A stretch of DNA of 62,837 nucleotides, filler included. It is 6 parts of 6 records of this genome, joined end to end, with 100 filler letters (N's around TTAATTAATTAA, not from the genome) between each part and the next. Parts side by side here need not be neighbours in the genome. Positions count along the whole stretch, not along the records: positions 23,723 to 30,775 come from SRR31156797_20026; 5 more parts are not named here. One strand, written 5' to 3'. Shown one piece after another: positions 14,787-30,775 of this stretch (position 1 is its first letter; every line of letters starts with the position of its first letter). The position numbers and the translations under genes are program-made. Under the pieces are notes generated by a model. The model had not been told where the DNA came from. It searched no databases and saw only the letters and a list, made by a program, of their open reading frames with translations.

Positions 14787-15260
14787 GCAGGAGAAGCAGG
14801 AAAAGGATTTGCAGTAGTCGCAGAGGAGATAAGAAAATTGGCTGGAAATTCAAAAGGTATGGCAGAAGAAATAGAAAATAAAATAGTGGATATTTCGGAT
14901 AAAATTGACTCTACTGTTGAGAAATCAAATAAGAGTAGAAAAAAAGTATCAGGAATGATTGAGGAAATAGATAGGATAGAAACAATATTTACTCAAGTAA
15001 TGGAAGTACTACAAAATGTTATTAAATCAATAGAATTAATTTATGATAATACAAAAAATCAAACTAATGAGTTAAATCATTTAAGTCAGAACTCAGATGA
15101 AGTCAGACTTGCATTTGAAAATATATCAATAAGCATAGAGGAGATAGATCAAGCAATGCTAGACACAAGTAATTCTATTAGCGGGCTGGTTAATGTGGTA
15201 GAAAACTTAACGCAGACCTCAGAGGAGGTGAACCATTCTATAAATAAATTTAGTATATAG
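14787..15260 (+). CDS. Methyl-accepting chemotaxis protein, C-terminal fragment
   Basis: Frame from 14787 reads [19 protein letters not shown], the MCP hairpin tip. Confidence 0.93.
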   Translation, partial: AGEAGKGFAVVAEEIRKLAGNSKGMAEEIENKIVDISDKIDSTVEKSNKSRKKVSGMIEEIDRIETIFTQVMEVLQNVIKSIELIYDNTKNQTNELNHLSQNSDEVRLAFENISISIEEIDQAMLDTSNSISGLVNVVENLTQTSEEVNHSINKFSI

Positions 15261-15304
15261 TTTGTTATGGTGATTATTTTACAAAGAATTAAAATAGGAG
15301 GAAA

Positions 15305-16039
15305 ATGATGAAAAAATTAGGATTGGTTTTATTGATTATTATTAGTTGTGTGAGTTTTTCTCTAGATAGTGTAACTTTTACATCTGGAGATTGGGAGCCA
15401 TATGCGTCGAGTAAAAATGAAGATGGAAGAGTAGCGGAGATATTGATTGAAGAAGCATTGGAATTAGAGGGAGTTGAAGTAAAATATAGATATTTTCCAT
15501 GGAAAAGAAGTCTTGAAACTGCTAGAAAAGCAAAATCAGATGGAGCGATACTTTGGTTTAAAACAGATGAAAGAGAAAAAGATTTTTACTATAGTTCGGA
15601 AAGTATAATTGACTCAAAACATGTATTATTTCACAAAAATAGTCAAACTATCGATTGGAATAACTTAGATGATTTGAAAAATTACAAAATAGGGATTTCA
15701 ATAGGCCATAAAAGCGAAAAGGATTTAAAAGAAGCAGGTATTGGATACGATGCCTCTCCGGATTATAAAACATTATTTAAAAAGTTAGCTGCAGGAAGAC
15801 TTGATATTGTTATTTGCGAAGAGATAGTTGGGTATACTATTATGAAAGATAGCTTATCTGACAATCAGTTCATGCAGATAACTAATCATGAAAAACCAAT
15901 ATACTCTTCACCTTTATATTTACTTGTAGCTAAAAGTCATAAAGATGCTGAAACAATAGTTAATTCATTTGATAAAGGAATGAGTAGATTAAAAGAATCA
16001 GGGAATTACTCTGAAATTATAGACAAAGTAAAGAAATAG
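15305..16039 (+). CDS. Family 3 substrate-binding protein
   Basis: Signal peptide, WEPY, FPWKR, GRLDIVI pattern. Confidence 0.85.
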   Translation: MMKKLGLVLLIIISCVSFSLDSVTFTSGDWEPYASSKNEDGRVAEILIEEALELEGVEVKYRYFPWKRSLETARKAKSDGAILWFKTDEREKDFYYSSESIIDSKHVLFHKNSQTIDWNNLDDLKNYKIGISIGHKSEKDLKEAGIGYDASPDYKTLFKKLAAGRLDIVICEEIVGYTIMKDSLSDNQFMQITNHEKPIYSSPLYLLVAKSHKDAETIVNSFDKGMSRLKESGNYSEIIDKVKK

Positions 16040-16154
16040 ATGATTTAAGTTAGGGTATAGAAAAAACATTAATAAAAATTCAGACTGATGGGACGATAGA
16101 AAGAATTTATAATAATATACTAAATAGGAATGATTTATTTTTGGGAGTGTTGAT

Positions 16155-18146
16155 ATGAGTAGAGAGTTAATCATTACAAATGGTGAAGAGTGTATTGGGT
16201 GTAATGCCTGTATAGAAGCTTGTCCAGTAGATTTTGCAAATAAGTTATATAAAACAATTGACGAGGAATTAAAGGTTTCAATTAATACTGAGAACTGTAT
16301 TGCCTGTGGAGAATGTATAAAAGTATGTTCGCATGGTGCACGAGATTTTTATGATGATTCTGAAAAATTTTTATATGAGTTAAAAGCAAAAAATATAGAA
16401 GCTGTTGTTGTTGCACCTGCACTATTGATTAATTATCCTGATGAGTATAAGAAAGTATTTGCTTGGCTAAAAAAAAATGGAGTGGAGCATATATGGGATG
16501 TAAGTTTTGGAGCTGATATTACAACTGTTTTATATGTTAAAGCAATTAAAGAGTTAGATTTAAAAAATATTATAGCACAACCATGTAGGAGCGTCGTTTC
16601 CTCAATAGAACGATATTATCCTAATTTAATAGAGTTGCTAAGTCCTATTGGATCACCGATGCATTGTACTGCGGTATTTATGAAAGAAAATCAAAACATA
16701 AATAATATTTGGGGGATTTCACCTTGTATTTCAAAAGGTGTAGAGTTCGAAGCTCATGAAGCCATTAAAGGAAATGTTTCTTTTAAGACACTAATGAAAG
16801 CGTATAGAAAAGAATCAAAAGAGATAACTGATTATGTCGATTTTGATTCTCCCGAATCATTAGTTGGGTTTTGGTATCCAATTCCAGGTGGTCTAATGGA
16901 GGCAGTTGAACAAGTTTTTGGAAAACAGTATCATATAAAAAGAATTGAAGGTCCTAAAGTAGTGCAAAAATATTTGAAGGAGATTAATAACGATAAAGCG
17001 CAATTACCATTATTAATTGATATTTTAAATTGTACTGAAGGTTGTTCTGTTGGAACAGGAACGGAATACCACGGAAATCAAGTAGAAAATTTACCTTCAA
17101 TTGATGAAATGGATTATTCAATATATGTCAAAAGTAAAAATCTTTTTAAAGAGAATAAAAATCTCTTTAAAAGAAAATCCCCTAAAGACATTGTCAAATT
17201 ATTATATAATAAACTTGATTTAGAAACCTATACTGTTAAGTATAATAATAAAAATACTAGCTATATAGATCAAATTGAGAGTGCCAAAAAAAATATTGAA
17301 AATGGTTTTAACTCTTTACTTAAAATTGAAAATGTCGAAAGGAAACATGATTGTCCGGCATGTGGATTTAATTCCTGTGAAAAAGCTGCATTAGCAATAG
17401 AACTAAATTTAAATGTGCCTGAATCATGTAGAGAATATACTCGGAAAGTTGCGGAACAAGATCGACTAGAAGTTCTTGATAAAGTTGAACTTTTAGAGGA
17501 AGCATTCAATTTAATCAAGTCTTTTTCAAATAAAAATCAGGATTATATGGATGCAACATCAACGCTAACAACAGAACTTTCTTCTGAAGCAAGTAGTTTA
17601 TCAGATTCTAATTTTACAGTAATTTCAAGAGTGGAAAAAATGGTAGATGGAATTAAATCTTCAAATGAAACACTTAACAAAACATCAGAAAGTATAAAAA
17701 TCATAAAAAAAAGAGCTAAGGAATTAAATGTAATATCAAATACTATACAAGGAATTTCTGAACAAACAAATCTCCTAGCCTTAAATGCAGCTATTGAAGC
17801 CGCCAGAGCTGGAACAGCCGGAAAAGGCTTTGGTGTTGTTGCTGATGAAGTAAAAAAACTGGCAGAAAATACAAAAAGGGAAGTTGAAAAGATTAATCCT
17901 TTTGTTGATTGGATTCATAATAAAATATCAGATTTGGAATCAACTTTTGCACAGATTATTAAAAGGTCAAATGTCAACTTGGAGGATGCAGAAATAATAT
18001 ATTCATCAACAGAAGAAATTAATGCAACATTAGATGAACTGACAAATGAAATTACAGCACTAGCTGAAGATAACTCGAGACAAAAAAATGAAATGGAAGA
18101 AAACGAGAGAAAAGTATTTAGAATAAAAATGGAATTAGAGAAATAA
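16155..18146 (+). CDS. Soluble [FeFe]-hydrogenase-like sensor fused to an MCP signalling domain (group C2-like)
   Basis: Two CxxCxxCxxxC motifs, H-cluster-like motifs [13 protein letters not shown] and [12 protein letters not shown], an FeS domain [10 protein letters not shown], and [17 protein letters not shown]. Confidence 0.85.
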
Positions 18147-18159
18147 ACCAAGGAGAATA

Positions 18160-19554
18160 ATGAGCGAATTTAAAAATCAAATTGGAAGTGATATTGATAT
18201 TGAAAAAGTTGATAGATTTATCAAAAAATACAGTAAAAATGATATTAGAAATGAATTAAGAAGCTTTATAATAATAAAAAATAATAAAATATTATTTGAA
18301 TATTGTAAGTCTCCATATAATATCAAAACGCCAACACATGTTTTTTCAGTAAGTAAAACTTTAACTGCGTTAGCTGTAGGCTTAGCTGAGAATGATGGCT
18401 TATTATCCGTTAATGATAGTATTAGTCCGTATTTTCTAGGAGAAATTGAGAATATTGATGAGTTCAAAAATATAAAAATAAAAGATCTTTTAACAATGTC
18501 AACAGGACAAATATATGACATGTTTGAAGAGAATGATTATGTAACTGGTATAAAAGACGAATGGGCAAAGAAGTTTTTCTCAATTCCTATTAAAGAAAAG
18601 ACAGGAGAATTTTTTAAATATAATACCGGAGCATCATATATTTTATCTATTATAATTCAAAAAATAACTGGAGAGTTACTAGTAGATTATATTTATAAAA
18701 ATCTTTTATTCAAAATGGGAATAGATAAACCACATTGGATTTTATCTCCAGAAGGATACTGTGCAGGTGGATTCGGAGCATTTATTACTCTAGAAGATAT
18801 GGTGAAACTAGGACTTCTTTTTTTAAATAAAGGAAAATGGAATAATGAGCAAATAATTTCTAAAGATTGGCTACAGAAATCAAGCTCTTTACAGTGTAAA
18901 ACAGATAACATAGAATTAGGTGACTACGCATTTGGATATGGATACCAAATGTGGATGGGGCGCGGGAACACTTACAAATTAGACGGTGCATATGGTCAAT
19001 TTTCAATTATTTTCCCAAATGATAATATGGTAATTGCTGTTACCTCGAGTATATCTGATAATACTAAAATGTTAGAAGATATTTATGATTTACTATATAA
19101 GGCAGTTTATTCCGATAAGACTGAATTAAATTCTGAAATTATTGATTGGAATGATTATTTTACTAATTCTCAAAATCTAGAAATTACCCCATCGTTAAGA
19201 AGATACAAAGTTGATAAAGATATTTTGGGCTTTAACGAAGTAATAATTGAGTTGAATAAAGACAAATTAGGATTTCAAATAGGGCAACAAAAGAAAATAT
19301 ATTTCAATTATTTTGAATGGTCAAAAACTAAAACATCAATAGATATTTTTGATGATAATATTTTGGTTAAAGGATACTGGGAAAATGAAGGCAAGTTTAA
19401 AGCAAGAATAAGATATGAGAAAACACCATTTATTATTGACTTTGATATTATTTTTTATGAGGATAATCGTATAATGCTAAATTTTTCTAAAAACTTACTT
19501 ACACCGATTGCCAGGGAATATATAGGTGTATTGATTGAGGAAATTCAACTCTGA
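18160..19554 (+). CDS. Serine hydrolase, beta-lactamase class C/esterase family
   Basis: SVSK (SxxK), LLTMSTG, FKYNT, GAYGQ. Confidence 0.85.
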   Translation: MSEFKNQIGSDIDIEKVDRFIKKYSKNDIRNELRSFIIIKNNKILFEYCKSPYNIKTPTHVFSVSKTLTALAVGLAENDGLLSVNDSISPYFLGEIENIDEFKNIKIKDLLTMSTGQIYDMFEENDYVTGIKDEWAKKFFSIPIKEKTGEFFKYNTGASYILSIIIQKITGELLVDYIYKNLLFKMGIDKPHWILSPEGYCAGGFGAFITLEDMVKLGLLFLNKGKWNNEQIISKDWLQKSSSLQCKTDNIELGDYAFGYGYQMWMGRGNTYKLDGAYGQFSIIFPNDNMVIAVTSSISDNTKMLEDIYDLLYKAVYSDKTELNSEIIDWNDYFTNSQNLEITPSLRRYKVDKDILGFNEVIIELNKDKLGFQIGQQKKIYFNYFEWSKTKTSIDIFDDNILVKGYWENEGKFKARIRYEKTPFIIDFDIIFYEDNRIMLNFSKNLLTPIAREYIGVLIEEIQL

Positions 19555-19715
19555 ACTACTGAATAATAGTTTAATTTTTATGTTTAACTTAATCTTTTGA
19601 AAGATGTGATTAAAATGAGCGAAATGATGGATATAATTAAAGAAATAGTTGATTTAAGTCAGGATAATAATTTTAATTATCAATTTTTACTTGTTAATTT
19701 TTTAGAGGAGGAATC

Positions 19716-20525
19716 ATGAAAAAAGAATTTAAATTAATATTAGTTGTATTTTTAATGGTGATTTTTCAAAGTATCAGTGCTGAACAAAGAAAATTTAGAA
19801 TTTATGCTTACGATAATGCTCCCTGGCATTTTCAACATCCTGGGACAAAAGAAGTAGTTGGAATAGTACCTGATATAATGAGAGAAATAGCAAAAGAATT
19901 AGATATTGATTTAAAATTTTATTTTGCTCCCGGTAAGAGATGCTGGGAAATGGTTTCAAGCGGAGAGGGAGAAATGATGCTTAGCCTTGCAGTAAAAGAG
20001 AGTAGAAAAGGTTTGATTTACTATGGTAATGAATCTATCTCAAGTGATGAGTTTGTATTCTTCGTTCATAAAGATCTAAAGAAATCAAATATAAAGGGAA
20101 CTATTCAGGATATGAAAAAATATAATCAAAAGATAGGAATTATTAGAGGAGCATCAGTTAATAAAGAGTTTTGGGAGGCATTTCCATATAAAGATGGAAC
20201 AACTTCATATAAAATAGATGGCGATGATTATAATGGTAGTATTCAGGCTGTTTCAAGTTATGTATTAGGTATGAGAATGGTCGGTAGAAGGAGAGAATTG
20301 AATTTTCTAGCTTTAAAAAATGCGGGCAGATATATCGCTAATCAAGAAGGAGTTGAAGTCGATTATTATGATTATCCACTGATTGAAAGAAAATACCCCA
20401 TTGCACTTTCAAAAAAATCTAAGTATCCCAACTTATTAAATTTAGCAGAAAAAATTGATAATGAATTAATAAAAATGAAACAAAATGGTTCATATAAAAA
20501 AATCATGGATGAATGGATAAGATAA
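19716..20525 (+). CDS. Family 3 substrate-binding protein
   Basis: Signal peptide, NAPW..GIVPDI, C-terminal MKQNGSYKKIMDEW. Confidence 0.8.
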   Translation: MKKEFKLILVVFLMVIFQSISAEQRKFRIYAYDNAPWHFQHPGTKEVVGIVPDIMREIAKELDIDLKFYFAPGKRCWEMVSSGEGEMMLSLAVKESRKGLIYYGNESISSDEFVFFVHKDLKKSNIKGTIQDMKKYNQKIGIIRGASVNKEFWEAFPYKDGTTSYKIDGDDYNGSIQAVSSYVLGMRMVGRRRELNFLALKNAGRYIANQEGVEVDYYDYPLIERKYPIALSKKSKYPNLLNLAEKIDNELIKMKQNGSYKKIMDEWIR

Positions 20526-20538
20526 AAATATATCAATA

Positions 20539-20578
20539 AAAAGAACAGGCAACCTTGAGATGGTTTGCCTGTTCTTTT
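20539..20578. terminator. Bidirectional intrinsic terminator
   Basis: AAAAGAACAGGCAA...TTGCCTGTTCTTTT between convergent genes. Confidence 0.85.
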
Positions 20579-20581
20579 AGT

Positions 20582-23515
20582 TTATTTAAATTCTGATGTA
20601 TAATCTATAAAGTCATTTAAGCTTAGCGGTTTACTGAAGAAAAATCCTTGTATGGTAATCTCTTCATTTTGGGATAAAATATCTAATTGTTCTGCTGTTT
20701 CCACACCTTCTACGACAGCTGATAGATTTAGTGAACTGGCCATATTTATAATTGTAGATACGAACTCTTTCTCGTCAGTTTTTCCCAGTTTATCAGTAAA
20801 GGTTTTATCAATTTTAAGACAATCAATAGGGAGTGTTCCTAATAGATTGAGCGATGAATAACCAGTACCAAAATCATCAATAGATATTTTTACTCCATAA
20901 CTTTTTATCTTTTCGAGTTTCTCTGTTATTTTTTTTATATTATTTTTGAATATTGACTCTGTAATCTCTAATTCAAGTTGCCAAGGAGCTATTCCGTTAT
21001 TTTCAACTGCAAATATTATATCACTGACAAAATTCTCATCCTCAAACTGTTTAACTGATACGTTAACCGCTAAAGAAGTTGGTAATCCTATTTTATTGAG
21101 ATTTGCAGCCATCTTACATGCTTCTGAAATTACCCATCTGCCTAGAGGAATGATTAAACCGCTATTCTCAGCTACTTTTATAAATTCAAAAGGAGGAATC
21201 AAATTACCGTTTCCATCTTTCATTCTAATTAATGCCTCTCCGCCTTGCATCAATTTAGTACCACTTTGAAATTTAATCTTAGGCTGAATATGCAATAGAA
21301 AATCATTATTAATTAAACCTTTTTTTATTTTTGATTCCATTTGGATTGCAGCTATATTTTTATCCTGAATCTCTTTTGAGTAGAAGCAATATCTGTTTTT
21401 ACCCAGTTCTTTTGCATTATACATTGCACTGTCTGCCTTCATGAGTAGGTCCTCTACTTCAGTTGAATCATCAGGTGCGATTACGATCCCTATACTGGCA
21501 CCTAAAAATAACTCAACATCATCTATTTGATAAGATTTCGATAGTTCTCGCAGAATTCTTTTAGCGACCAAATTCGGATTGGTATTACGATCAAAGTTTT
21601 CTAATAATATTATAAACTCGTCTCCTCCTAATCTTGAAACCGTATCAGTTGATTTAATAACACCTTTTATTCTTTTGGCAGCTTCTATCAGAACTTCATC
21701 TCCTTTAGAGTGCCCTAGAGTATCATTAACCATTTTAAACCCATCTAAATCAAGAAACATTAGAACTAACTCAACTTTGTTTCTTTTCACTTCTACAAGT
21801 GCTTTTTTTAGTATCTCCTTACAGAAAAATCTATTAGGAAGACCGGTTAAAGAATCATAATATGCCAGTTGTTTTACTTTCTCCTCTGTCCTTCTTAATT
21901 CAGATATATCTGAAAATAAGCCGATAAAATTAGTTGCCTTCCCTTGAGTATTTCTAATAATGTTAATAGAAAGCCAAACTGGAAATTGAGTTCCGTTTTT
22001 ACGAGGGAACCACACTTCACCCTTCCAAGTATTATTTTTTAGAAACTCATTCCATACTTTTACATAAAATGTTTTATAGTCATTATATAGACTAATCTCT
22101 CTTATATTCTTTCCTATTAGTTCATCTTTGGAGTAACCAGTGAATTCACAAAATGAATCGTTTATTTTTATGATATTTCTATCCAAATCAGTAATACATA
22201 CTCCGTCTGATGTTTGATTGATAATTTGTTCAGATAATAAAAGTTCATCATTTGCAGACTCCAGATCATTTTTTCTCTTAACAAATACTTTTCTTACATA
22301 ATTATTTAAAATATAAGCAGTTAAATAAAAACTGATTCTACCTATATGATCAACCACTGTAATATCAATAGTGTGAATTGGAAATCTGGTCATTATATTA
22401 AGTTCAAATATGATTGCCACTACTAAAATCAAAAAAGATAACAGTTTGATCTCAAATACAGAAGTGATAGTCATATAAATTATTGGAATTGCCCAAAGAA
22501 AATTCTGTAAATACTCAATTTTATCTCCACGAAATAGTAACTGTAATATCGAACCACACATTAATAGAACAAGTAAAATATCCTGTACTCTAACCGGCAT
22601 CCGCATCTTCGGCATATGATGTGTCAATGTTCCGAGTAAAATAAAAAAAGTACTTGAGAGCATAACTTGTGGTAGATTACTATAACTTTTTATTAAAGTA
22701 AAGAAAGTAAAAAATGATGTTAAGTAAAAGATAAAACCAATATCTTTATAGAAATTTTTTCGTAAAGATTTGGTGAGAATATCTTTTTCCTTAATTTTTT
22801 GTGTAGAAACTTCCAGAGTATTTTTACCATGTTTCTTTAAAAAAAGTTTAAATGTTAATAGTGCAATTAATAGATAAAAAGGCTCTAGTGCAGGTACCGG
22901 AACTCCGAATGTTTTTTTTATAAAAAAATCTACAATATTAGTTAATGCTAATAGTGATATAAAAACGATAGTATTTAATTGAACTGTTTTACGAAATTCT
23001 TTATTTTTACTTCTCCTATACATTATGAACATTATAGAAATAGTTGCAAAAACGAAAGTAAGATAATAAATTCTATAATACATATCAAATGGTGTAAACA
23101 TCTGGGTGTTTATCCATCCCAGGTTCGTTTCGACTAAGACAAACTCATTGTTTGCTATAGGTGAATATAATCCAAATAAGAATATATTGATCATAGCGGG
23201 GATATACATTATGATTGTTTTAATTCGATTTAATTTCTGTGCATAACCACTAAAATTTAACACAAAATGAAACAGAATAATGAATGAAGTTCCCCAACCT
23301 ATAGAGGCGAATCTTCTCCATAAAACAGCGGTTTCAGAACTGGTGTTTGCATTTGCAATTCCTAAAGCCTCACTCCAAATTGCAAAGGATAGGCATAGGA
23401 AAAAATATAATTGATTATTTTTATTTTTTACATTTCGAAGCAATACAGAAACTCCGTTAAAGAAAAAGAAAATAAATAAAATGTGATAACTAATAGTTAA
23501 TATAAATCGTCCCAT
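20582..23515 (-). CDS. Membrane (HisKA_7TM-like) PAS-GGDEF-EAL c-di-GMP enzyme
   Basis: Multiple N-terminal TM segments, PAS domain, intact GGDEF, EAL and DDFGTGYSSL motifs. Confidence 0.92.
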   Translation of the reverse strand: MGRFILTISYHILFIFFFFNGVSVLLRNVKNKNNQLYFFLCLSFAIWSEALGIANANTSSETAVLWRRFASIGWGTSFIILFHFVLNFSGYAQKLNRIKTIIMYIPAMINIFLFGLYSPIANNEFVLVETNLGWINTQMFTPFDMYYRIYYLTFVFATISIMFIMYRRSKNKEFRKTVQLNTIVFISLLALTNIVDFFIKKTFGVPVPALEPFYLLIALLTFKLFLKKHGKNTLEVSTQKIKEKDILTKSLRKNFYKDIGFIFYLTSFFTFFTLIKSYSNLPQVMLSSTFFILLGTLTHHMPKMRMPVRVQDILLVLLMCGSILQLLFRGDKIEYLQNFLWAIPIIYMTITSVFEIKLLSFLILVVAIIFELNIMTRFPIHTIDITVVDHIGRISFYLTAYILNNYVRKVFVKRKNDLESANDELLLSEQIINQTSDGVCITDLDRNIIKINDSFCEFTGYSKDELIGKNIREISLYNDYKTFYVKVWNEFLKNNTWKGEVWFPRKNGTQFPVWLSINIIRNTQGKATNFIGLFSDISELRRTEEKVKQLAYYDSLTGLPNRFFCKEILKKALVEVKRNKVELVLMFLDLDGFKMVNDTLGHSKGDEVLIEAAKRIKGVIKSTDTVSRLGGDEFIILLENFDRNTNPNLVAKRILRELSKSYQIDDVELFLGASIGIVIAPDDSTEVEDLLMKADSAMYNAKELGKNRYCFYSKEIQDKNIAAIQMESKIKKGLINNDFLLHIQPKIKFQSGTKLMQGGEALIRMKDGNGNLIPPFEFIKVAENSGLIIPLGRWVISEACKMAANLNKIGLPTSLAVNVSVKQFEDENFVSDIIFAVENNGIAPWQLELEITESIFKNNIKKITEKLEKIKSYGVKISIDDFGTGYSSLNLLGTLPIDCLKIDKTFTDKLGKTDEKEFVSTIINMASSLNLSAVVEGVETAEQLDILSQNEEITIQGFFFSKPLSLNDFIDYTSEFK

Positions 23516-23622
23516 TTAAATCACCTTTATATTTTTTTATTATATATATAGTTAAATATACAAAATTTTAAACAAATTCCTCTAAATAATCCTTTCTATA
23601 TAAATTTTAATTAGTTTCTTAT

Positions 23623-23722
23623 NNNNNNNNNNNNNNNNNNNNNNNNNNNNNNNNNNNNNNNNNNNNTTAATTAATTAANNNNNNNNNNNNNNNNNNNNNN
23701 NNNNNNNNNNNNNNNNNNNNNN
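23623..23722. other. Artificial contig linker
   Basis: N/TTAATTAATTAA/N. Confidence 0.99.
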
Positions 23723-24097
23723 GTGTTCATCGGAAAAACGCTGAAGTAAAAACGAAAAAAGCAGAACGTGGGCAGATCCTCTCTGAACCCTCCCTTACAT
23801 CATCTCTCCCAAAAACAATTCTTGCCCACGTTCAACTCTTCAGTATTTGTTCTATAAATCGATATTTTGAAAAGCTGGTACTATAATAGTAACATAGCAA
23901 CATTGTAGACTTTTATTTTTTGTAATTTTATACAGAATTTTGTAGTTCAGTATAGTGTTAGATAGCAGAATAGTGGAGTAAAGAAGTGGAGACAAAACAT
24001 TGGACAGATTCCATTTTGGATTTACTGTCCCCGTATGATTCATCTCCACTTATGGAAGAAGTTGTGCGTTTATTCAGGTACTTTTGCCTGGATGTTC

Positions 24098-24497
24098 TCA
24101 CATGACTGCGAGTTCAAAATTCTCCGCATTCGCATTCATATTTGGCATCCTCTGTTCTATTTTCGGAGCATCGTCCAATGGAGTTTTTCCAGTGTCCGGC
24201 ACATTCTTCAAACCATAGAGGCTTTGTCGTGCATCCTTGAAATAGAACCTTTCCTGCAGGAAATCCTCGTCCTTCAGTCTGCCTAGTGCATATCTGATGG
24301 TACGTGGAGGCAGGTAACTTTGTTCAGCAATCTCCTTCTGTGTAAGGAGTCCGCCATATTCGAGAACCTTAAAGACTAGTTTTGCAGAAGGTGGAAGTCC
24401 TTCTATTGTCTTTCTGACATCCCTGCCTTTTTGTTTTTCAATATCCTTAGTTATCTGTGCTTTTTCTCTGTAAGTATCAACAAAAGCGATCCCTCAT
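24098..24497 (-). CDS. Archaeal MarR-like winged-helix regulator, missing from the ORF track; its ATG is out of frame by one base
   Basis: Frame 24490-24098 reads LPPSAKLVFKVLEYGGLLTQKEIAEQSYLPPRTIRYALGRLK..DARQSLY. The SD-preceded ATG at 24497 gives MRDRFC-stop in another frame. Confidence 0.8.
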
Positions 24498-24547
24498 TTT
24501 ATATTTCTCCTCTTTGTTTTTGAGTATAAATTATTTGACATATAACT

Positions 24548-24576
24548 CTTCACGATTGTGAAGTAACAATTGTGAA
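24548..24576. promoter_or_regulatory. Tandem palindromic operator-like sites
   Basis: CTTCACGATTGTGAAG followed by GTAACAATTGTGAA in the divergent intergenic region. Confidence 0.55.
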
Positions 24577-24723
24577 ATTGTATTGATTTCATATATAATT
24601 GTCGATAAAAAAATCTGTTAAAAATGCTCTGTAGTAATTTTCTGTTTATAGTTATAATGCAGGTCTATTTTACCTTATCATATACTTATATATCAGAACC
24701 TGCGAAATTGTGTTTGATAATAT

Positions 24724-25584
24724 ATGGGTGAAAAGACAAACAACTATGACAGGCTTAAACAAGGCGGTTTCCTTCGCCAGAGGCAGCAGGAAGACCTCTT
24801 TTCCATGCGTCTTCGCATTGTAGGCGGCCAGCTAAGCGCTGAGCAGCTTCGGGCGCTTGCCGATGCTTCCGAGAAGTACGGCAGGGGTGAGGTTCACATA
24901 ACCTCACGTCAGGGACTTGAGATATCCTACGTGCCTTTCGATGACGCGGAATCCCTTCTTGACGAACTTGAGGACCGAGGCGTCCGTCAAGGCACCTGTG
25001 GTCCGAGGGTTCGTGGTGTAGTTGCATGTCAGGGTGATCGTATTTGCCCACGGGGACTGATCGATGCAGAGGACATTGCAAACAAGATTGATGAAAAGTA
25101 TTTTGCCATGGAGCTTCCTGGCAAGTTCAAGTTTGGAGTCACAGGTTGCCCTGCATCATGTATGAAGGCCCAGGAGAATGACTTCGGTGTCATGGGAGGC
25201 CTTGAGCCGAAGTGGAGAGAGGCTAATTGTAATTATTGCGGCCTCTGCCAGACTGCATGTCCTGCTGATGCCATCAGGGTTGAGAATAAAGCTCTGCACT
25301 TTGACCGGGATAAATGCATCCTATGTGGTCAGTGCCGCCTCATATGCCCTAAAGATTCATGGGTTATATCAAAAGAAGGATATACAATATATATCGGTGG
25401 CAAGGTTGGCAGATATCCAAGGTTTGGTATTAAGCTTGTAGAACTCGTAGATGAAGAAACACTCTTCAGTATTGTAGAAAAGTCTATTGAATTCTTCAGT
25501 AATGAAGCAAACCCTGAAGAGCGTTTCGGAGATACTATAGAGCGTATTGGTCTTGAAAAGTTCAAGAGCTTCGTACTGGAATGA
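24724..25584 (+). CDS. Small siroheme-[4Fe-4S] sulfite/nitrite reductase-like protein (Dsr-like/AsrC-like) with a ferredoxin domain
   Basis: HITSRQG, Cx5C (CQGDRIC), GCPASC and two CxxCxxCxxxCP motifs. Confidence 0.85.
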   Translation: MGEKTNNYDRLKQGGFLRQRQQEDLFSMRLRIVGGQLSAEQLRALADASEKYGRGEVHITSRQGLEISYVPFDDAESLLDELEDRGVRQGTCGPRVRGVVACQGDRICPRGLIDAEDIANKIDEKYFAMELPGKFKFGVTGCPASCMKAQENDFGVMGGLEPKWREANCNYCGLCQTACPADAIRVENKALHFDRDKCILCGQCRLICPKDSWVISKEGYTIYIGGKVGRYPRFGIKLVELVDEETLFSIVEKSIEFFSNEANPEERFGDTIERIGLEKFKSFVLE

Positions 25585-25697
25585 ATATGTTTAACTTAAT
25601 CTAAACCATATAGGATGATGGTTCAGTTATTTTTATATGTATATACATTATATATCTATAATCACATATGCAGCCAATATTACAGGGAAATTAAACA

Positions 25698-26408
25698 ATG
25701 CCAGAAGAAAAAACAGAAATAGAGAAACTAGCTGATGAGTATCGAGATAGTACTCCACAGATAATCCTTGAGTATGCCCTAAACAGGTTTGGAAAAGGTA
25801 TAACCATTGCATTTAGTGGTGCAGAGGATGTGGTGCTTATCGATATGGCCGTAAAGATCAGGCCGGATGTGAGTGTCTTTTCTCTGGATACGGGTCGTCT
25901 GCATCCTGAAACATACAGATATTTCGATGTTATTCGTGATCATTATGATATCCCGCTCGAGATATTCTTCCCCAACATGGAAAGGACAGAGGAACTTGTC
26001 CGGGAGAAGGGTATGTTCTCATTTTACAGAGATGGACATGAGGAGTGCTGCGACGTCCGAAAGGTAGATCCTCTCAGGCGCTCTCTCAGTACTAGGGATG
26101 CTTGGATCACAGGCCAGCGTAAGGACCAGAGTCCTAATACACGCAGTGATGTTCCTGTAATTCAAATCGACCCTTCCTTCGGTAATGGGCGGCTGATAAA
26201 GTTCAATCCACTGGCAAACTGGAGTTCAAAACAGGTTTGGAATTATATTCGAGAGAATGATGTACCATACAATGAACTTCATGAGAGGGGATATATCAGC
26301 ATAGGGTGTGAACCATGTACCAGACCAATCATGCCGGGACAGCATGAACGTGAAGGGCGCTGGTGGTGGGAAGATGCTACAAAAAAAGAATGCGGTTTGC
26401 ATTCATAA
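25698..26408 (+). CDS. cysH: APS/PAPS reductase, [4Fe-4S] APS-reductase type
   Basis: [24 protein letters not shown] and C-terminal ECGLH. Confidence 0.92.
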
Positions 26409-26503
26409 ATAGCTGATCTCTTATATTATTACCAGTTCATTTTTTTGTATAGATTGCAAGCTTAATTGAAAATTTCATTTAATGTGACTATAATACTAAA
26501 AGG

Positions 26504-26706
26504 ATGGCCAGTACAAAAGAATGCAATGGTCTTTCAAATTTGAAGATACTTGAACATGAAAGCATAACTATAATAAGGGCAGTAGTGGCTGAATTTGAGA
26601 ATCCTGTCAGTTGTGTTCGGTGGGTAAGGACTCATCGGCAATAGCTCATTTTGCTATAAGCTTTCGACCCAAAAAAGTACCTTTTCCGCTTTTGCATGTT
26701 GAATTC
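26504..26706 (+). pseudogene. cysD: Decayed sulfate adenylyltransferase subunit 2, N-terminal remnant
   Basis: LKILEHESITIIRAVVAEFENPV, a frameshift near 26610, then SVGKDSS..PFPLLHVE; matches the CysD N-terminus and similarity then ends. Confidence 0.82.
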
Positions 26707-26785
26707 ATACTCAGAAAGACACGCTTTCACATGCGTATGATATTTTCATATAATGTATGGCAGGTGGACAAAAAGCTGTTCAAAG

Positions 26786-27859
26786 TCAGTGTTCATTTTC
26801 CATGTCTTTGTAAGTATCATTTAGATCCACTTTAAGATATTCTTCATGGAACATTCTTGCCATGAGAACAACATATGATATTAGCAAGGGTCCTATAATT
26901 ATTCCAAGCAGGCCGAATAGATTCAGTCCTATTATTACTCCGATAAGCGATTCAAGTGGATGTATTTGTCCTACTTTTTTTTGTATCATGGGCCTTAAGA
27001 AGTTATCAATTGTACTGAGAAGCGCTCCACCTATGAGTATCCCGACGGCAGTAAAATAATCCTGCTGGATGAGCTGGATAATCACAGCAGGAACCCAGAT
27101 AAATGTAGCTCCGACAACTGGTAAGAATGAAAGAATTACTGCAATAAATCCCCAGAGGAAGGCCCCTTCTACTCCAAGTACCAGAAAGGTGATCGTAAGC
27201 AATCCTCCTTGTACAACAGCTATTATGCCTGAACTGATAAGTGTTGTATTAACGACAGATTTGAATTCATTTTGCAGTATATCCCTGTTCTTTTTGCTAA
27301 AGGGTATTGCTGCTTTGAATTTTTCGGATGTGTGTGTTCCGGTCCCTACAAGCAGGTAATACAGAAGGAAATACATAATGATGAATTCAATAATCCTCTG
27401 TCCAAGGCTCTGTATTGCATTCACAAGCATGACACTGAAGAAATTAGCAGTAGCAGCAACCACTTCCGTTATTTTCTCCCGGACATTTATCTCAACCGGA
27501 AGTTTGTCAAGGGGTAACTGGTTTATGTAGAGGTTGGCTGCATCCATATATTCGAGAATAGTGCTTGTATCAAAAAGGATGCTCTGGAGCTGAAAAACGA
27601 CAATTGTAATGAGTATATATAGCGGGATCATTATCAAAATGACAGTAAGTACTATTATCCCCATGGCTGCAATGCTTCTATTTACTTTCAGCCTGTTTGT
27701 TGCATATACAAAGAGAGGCTTAAAGATCACATACAGGATGAAAGCTCCAAAAAAGGCATTAATGTATGGGTATAATGCATAAACAAGCACCGCTGCTAAT
27801 AACGCAAGTATCAGGAGTGCCTGTGGCATTTTACTCGACTGCTTCATTACTTCTCCCAT
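26786..27859 (-). CDS. AI-2E family transporter
   Basis: Polytopic membrane protein with DNFLRP and FGLLGIIIGP motifs. Confidence 0.88.
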   Translation of the reverse strand: MGEVMKQSSKMPQALLILALLAAVLVYALYPYINAFFGAFILYVIFKPLFVYATNRLKVNRSIAAMGIIVLTVILIMIPLYILITIVVFQLQSILFDTSTILEYMDAANLYINQLPLDKLPVEINVREKITEVVAATANFFSVMLVNAIQSLGQRIIEFIIMYFLLYYLLVGTGTHTSEKFKAAIPFSKKNRDILQNEFKSVVNTTLISSGIIAVVQGGLLTITFLVLGVEGAFLWGFIAVILSFLPVVGATFIWVPAVIIQLIQQDYFTAVGILIGGALLSTIDNFLRPMIQKKVGQIHPLESLIGVIIGLNLFGLLGIIIGPLLISYVVLMARMFHEEYLKVDLNDTYKDMENEH

Positions 27860-27939
27860 TAATGTTCATTGTATTTAAGGTTATTATTTTTAGTATTAGA
27901 TTAATAACATCTATATCCCTTTGGATGCTATTTTAGTCG

Positions 27940-28782
27940 ATGATACCAAAATATGTTTTCCTTTTCAAAAATACTTTTATTAAATGGATGGAAGATGATG
28001 GCATCACTAGTAGTGCGGCTCTTTCCTTTCATGCTATAATAGGACTTCCGGCACTTATTCTTTTTACTCTCTTTCTGGGGAGCATCTTTTTGAAACAGCA
28101 GTTAATCGAGGCAGCCATCATAACAGATGTATCTCTTTTTGCAGACGATACCTCTATAAAGGCATTGAACATGCTTTTCACCCAGCTTTCTGTTAATACA
28201 TCTTTTAATTTTGGCATTATCCTGAGTTTCTTCGTGTACCTCTGGAGTGCGGGAAATATCTTCCTGCAACTTCAGCGAATGGTCAATAAAATGTGGGGTT
28301 CAAAAGCCACTGACAGGAGCTGGCTTCATCGTTTTGTCCGTAACAGGGCTGTTGCCCTGTTTGCAGCCCTGGTCTTTGGAATGCTTGTGACTCTAAGCAC
28401 TTTGTTCGAAGTTGTTTTCTTTGTCACTTCTGACAATCTGGAAATGGCATTTTCTATTCCAACAGGCATTATTCAATCGATCAACTTCGGAATAAATATC
28501 CTGACTCTGATAGCTCTTTTCATGTTCCTTTTCCGGGTTCTTCCTGAAAGAAACCCTGGATTAAGTTTTGTTTTCAGGGGATCCTTACTGACAGTTTTCC
28601 TGTTGACAATTGGCAAATATCTAATGGGCCTCTATCTGTTCTATAGTAATGTTGCAACTGTATATGGGACCATAGGTTCCGTTCTTGTTGTTTTCATGTG
28701 GGTATATATGTCATCCATTATTGTGACTTTCATGACCGAATTCATTGGGATCTATTCAGAATCAGGAAGAGGCGGGCAATAG
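27940..28782 (+). CDS. YihY/BrkB family membrane protein
   Basis: SAALSF, VNKMWG, YGTIGSV..W.Y.S motifs. Confidence 0.88.
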   Translation: MIPKYVFLFKNTFIKWMEDDGITSSAALSFHAIIGLPALILFTLFLGSIFLKQQLIEAAIITDVSLFADDTSIKALNMLFTQLSVNTSFNFGIILSFFVYLWSAGNIFLQLQRMVNKMWGSKATDRSWLHRFVRNRAVALFAALVFGMLVTLSTLFEVVFFVTSDNLEMAFSIPTGIIQSINFGINILTLIALFMFLFRVLPERNPGLSFVFRGSLLTVFLLTIGKYLMGLYLFYSNVATVYGTIGSVLVVFMWVYMSSIIVTFMTEFIGIYSESGRGGQ

Positions 28783-29169
28783 TTTAAAAAAGATACATGT
28801 CTCATAATGGCTTTTCAATAGTCTGTAATGTGTGATACATTACAAAATATATACATATCACAGTACATGTACTTGATATCTAATATATTATCAGAAGGAT
28901 CTTTGGAGTCCTTTTCTTCTCTATCATCAATTTGCGGGATTGTTGATTGCCTCTTTATTCTGTTCTGCAACTGCGAATGTATATATTATCTGTATGATTG
29001 CTTCATAAAGCATCATTTATGAATAAAACATATAAATTAATACGAATACCATCTTGTAGCATACGTGTAATAATATGTGTGAATTATGCATTGATCGCTT
29101 ACAGGACACTTTTATGCACCTGCAGGATCAAATACAAAAAAGAAAGTGTAATGGTTTCCAGGAGATTCT

Positions 29170-29469
29170 TTAAAGAATATCCCTGAGGCCATTGGCTGCT
29201 GTGTAAATGCTTCCAACCCCACCAATGAAGTTAGCAATACGTACTGCTTCCATTATTTCCTTTTTTGTTGCACCTGCTTCCAGTGCCTGCAGAGCAAGTA
29301 CCTTTACACCATCTACAGCTCCATGGTCTGCATCAAGTGCCATGGCTATGAGGAATTTGTATTTTAGCGGTATATTACCTTCAGAAAGTGCGTTCTCACG
29401 CACTCCTTCTAAGATGTCAAAAAATTCACTGTCCTTTTCCTGAATTATGTTCAACGGATGTCCTTCCAT
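29170..29469 (-). CDS. Carboxymuconolactone decarboxylase/AhpD family protein
   Basis: IPLKYKFLIAMALD and ALEAGATKKEIMEA; start at MEGHPL. Confidence 0.85.
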   Translation of the reverse strand: MEGHPLNIIQEKDSEFFDILEGVRENALSEGNIPLKYKFLIAMALDADHGAVDGVKVLALQALEAGATKKEIMEAVRIANFIGGVGSIYTAANGLRDIL

Positions 29470-30017
29470 TTTATTCGCTCCACATTTTTGATTTAAGAGG
29501 TATTGGATTGTATAGGTACTTTGCAACAATAATCTCAATATACTTGAACATGCCTGTGTTCTGATGTTTCATCCATACTTTTGTTGTTAAGTCAATGGTT
29601 TAAAGAGGGTTAAGCTAACGATCATGATGTGAAATTGTATGAATAAAGATGATGAAGTTGGTTATTAGATACTCAGTGTTTTAATCCGTAAAGTGTATAC
29701 ATATGGTCTCCGTAAAATAAATATATTAATAAATAAAAATAACCCATATTCCTTGATAGGTCAATTTAATAACAAGTACCCTAAAACGAAAGAACTGACT
29801 AAATTATCCTGAAAAGCAACGATTATTAAATGTTCAGATTTTTAAAAGAATCTTTATCAGTGAATCATTATATTGAAATCTATTTTCTATACCACCATTG
29901 ATTCCATTATTTTTTTATAATAGTAACCTTAAAAGAGCTATAACTCTGCGACCATTTTGCTCTGAAAATAGTAGTTTTGTTCGTAGGTATATTTGGTGCT
30001 TTTGTGGAAGGTTATTA

Positions 30018-30775
30018 ATGAAAAAAATATCACTGCTTGATTTTGGCAATGTCAAAGATTCTGAACTTAAGTCTAAACTTGAAAATTTTGGCTATCTTGT
30101 TCACTCATTGTCGGTGCCGGACCTGATGTCCCTTGATAAAACTGACCTGAAAGGATCGGATATCCTCATCTGTTCATACGATAAAGCTGAATTCAATGAT
30201 TTATCTGCCAGCCTTGTACCTTTGCCAAATAATGTTTCTATTATTTTTGTAGTTAAAAACTGCAGCAATGATCTTTTCCACAATATGCGCAGGTTTAGCA
30301 ATTCGTTGTATGTTAAAATACCATTTGAGAAAACTGAACTTGATTTCCTTATCTCCATTGCTTCCAAATGTCCACCAGATAATAATAACAAAAATGATCA
30401 TTTTGAAGATGGAACTGAGCTTAAAAATACTGAAAAAACTTTAAAGGAAATAGAGGAACGCTTCCAGATCATGTATGAGAATGTACCTGGTGGTACGATG
30501 ATCATTGGACGGGACTATATTATTGAAGATGTGAATCAGAGAACCTGTGATATTACAGGATACAAAAAAGAAGAACTTATAGGCCAGTTATGTGATATCG
30601 TGTGTCCCAAAGGGTCATTGTCAAAGAAGTGTCCTATATGGGTTGATGGTCTTGAAGGATTCAGGGGTATGGATACGGCCATTAAATGCAAGAATGGTGC
30701 AAAAACTCCCATCCTTAAAAATACGAAAAGGATTTTCATAGACGGCAATCAGTTCATCCTGGAGAACTTCCAGGA
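30018..30775 (+). CDS. PAS-domain signal transduction protein with a degenerate receiver-like N-terminus, 3'-truncated
   Basis: ERFQIMYEN..VNQRTCDITGYKKEELIG PAS pattern; the frame runs into the linker. Confidence 0.75.

Follow-up and report, generated by a model that had tools for sequence, protein, structure and literature searches.

The regulator gene and its start region

We describe a small winged helix-turn-helix (wHTH) regulator gene of methane-cycling archaea, and the short sequence at its start, on the minus strand of a DNA stretch of 62,837 nucleotides (nt) that joins six parts from six records of one genome (the window). The gene lies in the part from SRR31156797_20026 (positions 23,723–30,775). 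An earlier note on this DNA had proposed that the gene is entered by a +1 ribosomal frameshift and that the frameshift senses cysteine. The features of the locus are collected in Table 1.

On the minus strand, GGAG (24510–24507) is followed, after a 9-nt spacer, by an ATG at 24497–24495. The frame opened by this ATG (frame 0) reads ATG AGG GAT CGC TTT TGT TGA (24497–24477, with the stop at 24479–24477) and translates as MRDRFC. The wHTH protein is encoded in the +1 frame, which is open from 24493 to a stop at 24100–24098 (131 codons) and reads GIAFVDTYREK... directly after an upstream stop codon. Before the HTH this frame contains no ATG, GTG or TTG: a listing of open reading frames (ORFs) with those three starts gives no ORF in the window there, and the first canonical start codon of the +1 frame lies downstream of the HTH. 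The frame does contain an ATC at 24490–24488, which the annotators of related genes take as the start. The wHTH frame seems to be readable only by a ribosome that starts 7 bases upstream, at the ATG of the other frame, and slips one base ahead just in front of the Cys codon. Both the short ORF behind its Shine-Dalgarno (SD) sequence and the intact wHTH frame with no start before the HTH are thus present as the earlier note described them.

Table 1. Features of the regulator locus and its neighbours, in window coordinates
Feature	Position	Strand	Remarks
Putative operator	24549..24578	-	Palindrome TTCACGATTGTGAA (24549–24562) and an adjoining imperfect copy; 2–3 tandem copies in relatives
SD sequence GAGGAG/GGAG	24507..24512	-	9 nt before the ATG; predicted duplex with the 16S tail -7.2 kcal/mol
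Frame-0 short ORF MRDRFC-stop, entry ORF of the cassette	24477..24497	-	Sequence and conservation
Internal SD-like element AUGAGGGAUC	24488..24497	-	Complementary to the 16S 3' tail GGAUCACCUCCU: 4 bp, 1-nt bulge, 4 bp
Candidate slip site UUU_U	24482..24485 (T4 run)	-	P-site UUU at 24485–24483 would re-pair at 24484–24482
Frame-0 Cys codon UGU, proposed slow A-site (sensor) codon	24480..24482	-	UGY there in 110/110 cassette loci
+1 coding part, GTT (Val) to stop	24098..24481	-	With five frame-0 codons, a predicted 132-residue product MRDRF-VDTYREK...
wHTH core (LPPSAKLVFKVLEYGG...ARQSLYGLK)	24203..24397	-	PF13412 match, invariant alignment columns, AlphaFold model
Divergent small sulfite/nitrite-reductase-like protein with ferredoxin insert (NIR_SIR and Fer4)	24724..25584	+	Family matches; context only
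APS/PAPS (adenylyl sulfate/phosphoadenylyl sulfate) reductase, cysH-like	25698..26408	+	Family match; context only
cysD remnant, first ~65 residues, in two frames	26504..26832	+	Context only

Recurrence of the arrangement in relatives

A protein search returns 409 homologues, the closest source-named ones coming from Methanolobus, Methanococcoides, Methanohalophilus, an ANME-2 archaeon, Ca. Methanoperedens, Methanothrix and others. In 110 distinct homologous loci we find the same cassette: an SD, an ATG, 0–3 codons, AGG RAU YNN, YUU_U and UGY, with the wHTH ORF in the +1 frame. These loci comprise 64 of the window clade, 1 further locus, 30 of a second clade and 15 of a third. The candidate slip codon is UUU_U in 65 loci and CUU_U in 45, with no other form, and the codon that would follow in the A site is UGY (Cys) in all 110.

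How the loci were found matters for reading these counts, as 54 of the 110 were fetched through the DNA motif itself and 56 were picked by protein alone. The invariance of the motif-fetched loci is partly there by construction, and a protein-only search with the 69-residue HTH core was therefore made. Among protein-selected loci with a complete 5' end, the cassette is present in 55 of 56, the lone exception being L103. The motif search covered 284 genomes of the same order with up to two mismatches allowed; it found the motif in 73 of them, and a reversed control pattern gave one match. The HTH-core search has matches in 119 of the same 284 genomes; 58 of its matches lie outside the loci that were read, L104 and L156 are cut by contig ends, and L128 was left out. 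Nine two-mismatch motif matches (L018, L023, L024, L027, L028, L040, L057, L065 and L077) are chance matches with no wHTH ORF and were excluded from the counts; the motif matches G148:C5 and G167:C1 are outside the counts as well. Judged by these sequence comparisons, the recurrence of the cassette is far beyond chance.

The three clades differ in detail. All 64 loci of the window clade read ATG-[AG]GG-[GA]AT-[CT]GN-TTT-TG[TC], with the wHTH ORF in +1. They include all ten of the protein-selected loci from named Methanolobus and Methanococcoides genomes (L001–L010), in which ATGAGGGATCGNTTTTGTTGA is identical except at N and for one C-to-T change. All 30 loci of the second clade were protein-selected and have an SD, an ATG, 0 or 3 codons, AGG RAT C[G/A]T CTT TGY and a +1 wHTH ORF that begins GIVFA...; the N-terminus of one of them (L131) is that of P0050, source-named Ca. 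Methanoperedens. P0065 (source-named Methanothrix soehngenii), searched against 392 genomes of the class, led to the third clade, whose complete protein-selected loci (15/15) read ATG (with 0 or 2 codons added) AGG GAT YNN CTT TGC.

Within the cassette, some parts move and others do not. From the ATG to the Cys codon the distance is 4, 6 or 7 codons; the ATG is without exception in frame 0 and never in the wHTH frame, and an SD (GGAG, GGTGA or a close variant) precedes it by 4–10 nt, in 64/64 loci in the window clade. The length of the frame-0 ORF varies from 6 to 16 codons in the same 64 loci. A stop directly follows the Cys codon in 42/64 window-clade loci and in 0/30 second-clade loci. The earlier note had asked whether orthologues share the TTT-TGY site, the stop behind it and the out-of-frame ATG; the slip codon (as UUU or CUU), the Cys codon and the ATG are indeed conserved, but the stop is not. 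Phe in the +1 frame is followed by Val or Ala and nothing else, these being the two residues that give UGU or UGC in frame 0; beyond that position the residues vary freely.

In L103, the cassette is replaced by GGAGGT-N8-ATG with an in-frame start. A quick tree (71 columns, most forks unresolved, used for this locus only) places L103 as sister to a cassette-bearing gene (Shimodaira-Hasegawa approximate likelihood ratio test support, 98), and the absence of the cassette therefore looks like a secondary loss. A paralogous subfamily marked by LSPSVKL/PSVKF (10 loci) has ordinary starts.

Three side observations concern family members. Second-clade genomes have 2–5 family members each, among the matches listed. 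Four third-clade loci of 3 kb (L160, L164, L165 and L166) each hold two cassette-bearing paralogues, each with an SD, an ATG and CUU_UGC. L046 and L052 (G169 and G185) have a paralogue containing ATGGGGAATCG, with TGG in place of the TGA that normally ends the +1 frame across the ATG. This leaves the +1 frame open over ~45 additional codons upstream, and in L046 an in-frame ATG lies upstream.

The same comparisons bear on a simpler explanation that the earlier note had offered as the alternative, that a one-base sequencing error or a recent pseudogenisation has split an ordinary gene. The Logan contig of run X1 (depth 40), the only run to contain the stretch in full, shows 0 differences and 0 gaps against window positions 24050–24750, a match that is not independent because X1 is probably the source of the window DNA. 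A related contig from a salt-marsh metagenome, run X2, covers 24347–24577 with 14 differences and one inserted base in the 5' leader, and has no indel or change inside 24477–24497. The A4 run (24482–24485), which the earlier note had singled out for checking, is thus identical in the one and unchanged in the other, both comparisons being with assembled contigs and not raw reads. A T-run one base shorter, which would give the in-frame form, occurs in 0 real orthologues in the 284 genomes searched, and only L103 has a plain in-frame ATG; the sole match for the shortened run is the 3' end of an unrelated transporter gene. Systematic assembly error is implausible because T-run lengths differ among assemblies (T3, T4, T5). 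With the same arrangement in 110 loci from several families and a strongly conserved wHTH core, error or pseudogenisation is so improbable that it can be set aside in practice; by all these sequence comparisons, neither of the two applies to the gene.

A nucleotide signal and an internal Shine-Dalgarno-like element

Alignment at the slip codon of 41 protein-selected loci, somewhat circular in that [IV]-x-F-[VA] of the +1 frame served as its anchor, gives a conserved block from -12 to +5: A, [UG/GA], A, G, G, R, A, U, C (39/41), G (40/41), N, Y, U, U, U, G, Y. Most positions of the block carry 2 bits, and the flanks rarely more than 1 bit. The frame-0 wobble bases G6, T9 and T15 (of AGG, GAU and UUU/CUU) are invariant, while the two spacer bases before the slip codon vary (CGN, CUA, UUA, UGU, CAU). 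Fixed wobble bases beside variable spacer bases point to a nucleotide signal with a 2-nt spacer, rather than to conservation of a peptide or of ordinary codons.

The 16S rRNA of relatives ends in ...GGAUCACCUCCU (the end of the Rfam small-subunit model at L151:1520), and A[UG/GA]AGGRAUC of the block is nearly its complement. In loci where the ATG has moved away, positions -12 to -7 read AGAAGG instead of AUGAGG, and each of the two is one mismatch from AGGAGG. In the window the SD-like element GAGGGAUC ends 2 nt before the slip codon. When it is paired in silico with the 16S tail (4 bp, a bulge of one rRNA base, 4 bp), the energy comes to -11.5 kcal/mol, and the mean predicted for the internal element over 95 loci is -9.5 kcal/mol. 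The corresponding predictions for the true SD are -7.2 kcal/mol in the window and -7.4 kcal/mol as the mean of 95 loci, and elsewhere in the region the background is -1 to -2.5 kcal/mol. This internal element, the strongest of the cassette, was missed by the earlier note. A hairpin does not explain the conservation, because RNAalifold gives 0 conserved pairs around the site for 27 diverse sequences.

Behind the internal SD-like element, at a distance normal for a start codon, there is also a tandem TTG TTG in frame +2 (window 24483–24478). The ORF that it would open is short, with only ~10 codons in the window and 4 in clade 2. The tandem probably has no meaning, but it could draw initiating ribosomes.

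The same block contains the ATC that public annotation uses. Full-length annotated relatives start MVFV(D/E/G)N, others MVFA or MYFA, and their N-terminal M is there because the ATC in the +1 frame has been taken as the start. If the regulator does begin at this conserved AUC (or AUU), as in the NCBI annotation, the ATG mini-ORF would be a decoy or a regulatory upstream ORF. ATC or ATT is found at the same place in all cassette loci, C-to-T changes there (L007, L114, L161) are synonymous in the +1 frame, and conservation in two frames at once would be explained if both frames are read. There is also precedent for a conserved non-AUG start in infC (IF3), which is autoregulated through an AUU start; in infC, however, no upstream AUG with an SD of its own competes, whereas the SD of the cassette serves an out-of-frame AUG. 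Being placed for the ATG, the SD is about 14–17 nt from the AUC in the window clade, or some 11–17 nt or more as reckoned from the 4–10 nt between SD and ATG, and about 23–26 nt from it where the ATG lies three codons further upstream, and the strong AUG 7–16 nt upstream would capture ribosomes. AUC and AUU starts are weakly used in archaea. Furthermore, the AUC lies inside the 16S-pairing stretch, so that its conservation is explained with no role as a start. Initiation at the AUC also leaves unexplained the fixed frame 0 of the ATG through YUU-UGY, the restriction of the slip codon to UUU or CUU, and AUGAGG/AGAAGG at -12 to -7. It is the leading rival of the frameshift, and we consider it unlikely.

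One relative, P0034 (ANME-2), is annotated as beginning MIVFVNNN, so that a codon able to start translation should stand just before the ATT, in place of the GGG or GGA of relatives. This could reflect a single-base variant (e.g. GTG) or a truly in-frame form.

The mini-ORF might instead be a leader peptide coupled to the regulator in another way, attenuation-like or by termination and reinitiation, with the regulator starting internally or downstream. Some ATG, GTG or TTG is present inside the N-terminal extension in 28/64 window-clade loci, and the database homologues P0047, P0068 and P0071 are annotated with short N-termini. Those start codons are, however, at differing positions, and 36/64 loci, the window included, have none in the +1 frame before the HTH. 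In every window-clade locus, the +1 frame can be followed back to the cassette without a stop, across 20–32 variable codons in which indels are of whole codons, and the extension is predicted (with low confidence) to form a helix before the wHTH. The frame-0 stop, 6–16 codons along, has no fixed distance, and the RNAalifold result gives such coupling no conserved RNA structure. This alternative appears very unlikely.

The proposed frameshift

Given the known geometry of +1 sites, the conserved ATG and SD, the U-run and the Cys codon make a slip on UUU_U, yielding MRDRF-VDTYREK, the best-supported reading. The slip at TTT-T put forward in the earlier note stands in this sense, with a conserved site and a geometry like that of release factor 2 (RF2), but the slip codon is CUU in two other clades. 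On the sequence evidence, it is probable, with odds somewhat better than even, that the wHTH regulator gene opens with a cassette for programmed +1 ribosomal frameshifting; cysteine sensing through the frameshift is a more tentative proposal, somewhat short of even odds. On the full reading, Archaea would have here their first conserved programmed +1 frameshift of a cellular gene. It would be an ancient RF2-like cassette, common to lineages of the Methanosarcinales type, ANME-2, Methanoperedens and Methanothrix, whose single hungry Cys codon lets the ribosome sense charged tRNA-Cys, so that a Cys-free regulator is made only in sulfur or cysteine shortage; to this reading we assign a probability of roughly 0.38. 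What the sequences show is how the cassette is built and conserved, its match to the 16S tail, the scarcity of Cys in the predicted products and the genes nearby; we infer that the slip occurs, that it depends on Cys-tRNA, and what the regulator targets.

The proposed mechanism is as follows. Ribosomes would bind the normal SD, start at the ATG at 24497 and read four further codons (AGG GAU CGC UUU). With UUU in the P site, GAGGGAUC would pair with the 16S 3' tail 2 nt behind, while the A site awaits Cys-tRNA on UGU. If the A site is filled quickly, translation would continue in frame to the stop one codon later (the frame-0 ORF being 6–16 codons long in relatives), and no regulator would be made. 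If the A site stays empty, peptidyl-tRNA-Phe would re-pair one base forward (UUU_U), GUU would be read next, and the 132-residue regulator would follow. Its yield would then rise when charged tRNA-Cys is scarce, that is, in sulfur or cysteine shortage. The regulator may bind the tandem palindromes before its own gene and probably has other targets in sulfur and cysteine metabolism. In these archaea, the SepCysS route can make Cys-tRNA directly from a sulfur donor.

Cysteine sensing is strengthened, though not decisively, by two observations, the lack of cysteine in the products and the sulfur- or cysteine-related neighbourhoods described below; the restriction of the residue after Phe to Val or Ala also fits it. 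The predicted post-shift products contain 6 Cys in 9,755 residues, and 89 of 95 are Cys-free, the 95 being related by descent and not 95 independent events. Relatives with canonical starts have 1–4 Cys in all 11 examined.

A frameshift could also have another trigger, namely how far the P-site tRNA is modified at G37 (to a wyosine derivative in tRNA-Phe, to 1-methylguanosine in tRNA-Leu), which depends on S-adenosylmethionine (SAM) and Fe-S enzymes; the Cys codon would then be secondary. SAM and Fe-S supply follow sulfur status, which fits the neighbourhoods, but the strict UGY (110/110) and the Cys-free products would then be unexplained, and we regard a G37 trigger as quite unlikely. Position-37 modification of both slip-codon tRNAs does restrain +1 slipping, as at RF2 sites in the excerpted text of PMC5009743.

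Several points weigh against the cysteine-sensing frameshift, and we list them together. The loci are phylogenetically related, so their counts are of non-independent events, and 54/110 were ascertained by the DNA motif. The +1 frame has a conserved AUY codon (ATC or, rarely, ATT), which public annotation takes as a start (MVFV...; P0050, P0065), and the +1 reading I-x-F-[V/A] could reflect conservation at the protein level. The SD-like duplex is weaker in the second clade, at -6.6 and -4.9 kcal/mol in the two example sequences folded. In L103, a plain SD and an in-frame ATG have taken the place of the cassette, which is therefore dispensable. Frameshifting on a sense codon is usually inefficient. 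Finally, the palindrome TTCAC-N4-GTGAA, the putative operator, was not found at the sulfite reductase and permease promoters of relatives.

Comparison with known systems

The cassette resembles the autoregulatory +1 frameshift site of the bacterial RF2 gene (prfB) in its short ORF0, an SD-like stretch a few nt 5' of CUU_U or UUU_U, an A-site codon that begins with UG and whose decoding is slow (in the cassette, by proposal) when the decoder is scarce, a main ORF in the +1 frame with no canonical start of its own, and the deep conservation of the site. In RF2 the slow step is that RF2 itself must recognise UGA. The excerpted text of the Atkins 2016 review (PMC5009743) gives CUU_U as the site of the RF2 shift and UUU_U as the form used by a minority of species, the same two as in the cassette. 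The two differ in that the A-site codon of RF2 is a stop, UGA, read by its own product, whereas that of the cassette is a sense codon, UGY, in an archaeal host; the cassette site also lies only 5–8 codons from the start, and its predicted product is a transcription regulator. As the A-site codon is UGY (Cys) and not UGA, the sensed molecule would be Cys-tRNA and not the product itself; by analogy with RF2, the slow step here would be the arrival of Cys-tRNA.

In ornithine decarboxylase antizyme, a metabolite-responsive +1 frameshift decides the synthesis of a regulatory protein. This frameshift is mentioned in the excerpted text of PMC8211752. Antizyme differs from the cassette in being eukaryotic, in using UCC_UGA with a downstream pseudoknot, and in sensing polyamines rather than a tRNA.

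Leader attenuation, as at pheL, shares with the cassette a very short leader ORF containing codons for the sensed amino acid, with pausing at hungry codons setting expression. Frameshifting in the pheL leader has reportedly been seen in bacteria. The cassette differs in that it has no alternative hairpins, its leader overlaps the regulated ORF, and the proposed output is a trans-frame fusion.

For Archaea, the excerpted text of a 2021 review (PMC8211752) gives the -1 frameshift of fucA1 in Saccharolobus solfataricus as the only cellular programmed frameshift demonstrated, and mentions +1 frameshifting in an archaeal context only for a haloarchaeal virus. The fucA1 case differs from the cassette in that it is a -1 shift on A_AAA_AAT, in an enzyme gene of one lineage, with no known sensor role. 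A cellular +1 archaeal frameshift was found neither in the excerpted text of PMC5009743 nor in full-text literature searches. Such searches also returned nothing on the regulator family or its site; they cover one collection of papers and are no proof of absence.

Confirmation of either the frameshift or the cysteine sensing would give Archaea their first conserved +1 frameshift in a cellular gene, and a new link between aminoacyl-tRNA supply and transcription. It would mean that SD-stimulated +1 slippage works on archaeal ribosomes, and that a frameshift can read out aminoacyl-tRNA supply and so set the level of a transcription factor. The sulfur- or cysteine-status signal that has so far been missing in methanogens and methane oxidisers would be supplied, and a frameshift would do in Archaea what attenuation and T-box sensing do in bacteria. 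The site itself is short and portable. There is also a consequence for annotation, as current entries for genes of the family either begin at ATC, ATA or ATT or have a truncated N-terminus.

The regulator protein

The protein matches PF13412 (HTH_24) with 23.1 bits against a cut-off of 21.9; MarR_2 is below its cut-off (18.1 versus 27). An AlphaFold model from a 19-sequence alignment has a mean pLDDT (predicted local distance difference test score) of 67.6, with 84–93 in the core, which is modelled as a three-helix bundle with a two-strand wing (H-H-H-strand-strand). The N-terminal extension is modelled, with low confidence, as a long helix packed before the wHTH, and the last 30 residues are predicted to be disordered. 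The best Foldseek hits for the model are MarR-family chains (probability 1.0, TM score ~0.45), with TFE-alpha/TFIIE winged helices also found, and by sequence the top PDB match is 4xrf, from the MarR family (E 0.0015). The PF13412 match and the MarR-led fold search make the protein resemble MarR-type and HTH_24 regulators; it differs in being much shorter and in having none of the C-terminal dimerisation helices of MarR. The model and these matches indicate a generic small wHTH regulator, and no characterised member was found.

Operators and gene neighbourhood

Tandem palindromes TTCAC-N4-GTGAA are found only before the regulator's own gene in six relatives (L092, L094–L098). In Methanolobus-, Methanococcoides- and Methanohalophilus-type loci there are 2–3 tandem copies, ~14–15 nt apart. 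The window has the pattern once, no more than chance for the whole window. In ANME-2-like and second-clade loci (e.g. L106, L114), GTTAAC-N3-GTTAAC stands between a TTTATA box and the SD, and paralogues with canonical starts also have it. Since the putative operator stands only before the regulator's own gene, autoregulation is plausible.

In the window, the neighbours are a sulfite-reductase-like gene, cysH and a cysD remnant, and family matches agree with the earlier note on all three. Control of the sulfite reductase or cysH genes by the regulator is not supported: the operator is confined to the regulator's own gene in relatives, and the direct divergence of regulator and reductase is peculiar to the window. 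In the closest relative's locus (L097), a PHO4-type permease gene and a 154-codon ORF lie between reductase and regulator. Both are absent in the window, where the sulfate-assimilation cluster, with its stump of cysD, looks eroded.

Sulfur- or cysteine-related genes lie within ~4 kb of the regulator in 11 of 18 context loci, plus the window; nothing sulfur-related was found near the other 7 of the 18. Loci of the Methanolobus type have sulfite reductase, APS/PAPS reductase and the PHO4-type permease, with TusA too in L096. In L094, SepCysS (TIGR02539, 512 bits) lies with DUF169 directly upstream on the same strand. Other neighbours are a cysS fragment, ThiF/ThiS/MoaE, a rhodanese, O-acetylhomoserine sulfhydrylase and Thi4.

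In a large-genome clade (G217–G274; L085, L087, L088 and L090), the regulator follows a NifH-like gene, which matches PRK13230 with 350.4 bits against a cut-off of 350 and falls below the cut-offs for CfbC and NifH. A conserved 95-codon ORF with no family match also precedes the regulator in these four loci, and L090 has a gene of the nitrogenase-component-1 type too.

A low-GC block of the window (15000–24000; GC content 0.26–0.33, versus ~0.40 from 24000 on) starts right after the 3' end of the regulator gene. Its genes are of bacterial type: a Fe-hydrogenase-like/MCP-signalling fusion (16155–18146), a beta-lactamase-fold protein (18160–19554), an SBP_bac_3 protein (19716–20525) and a 977-residue 7TM-PAS-GGDEF-EAL protein (20582–23515). 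The block looks like an acquired island.

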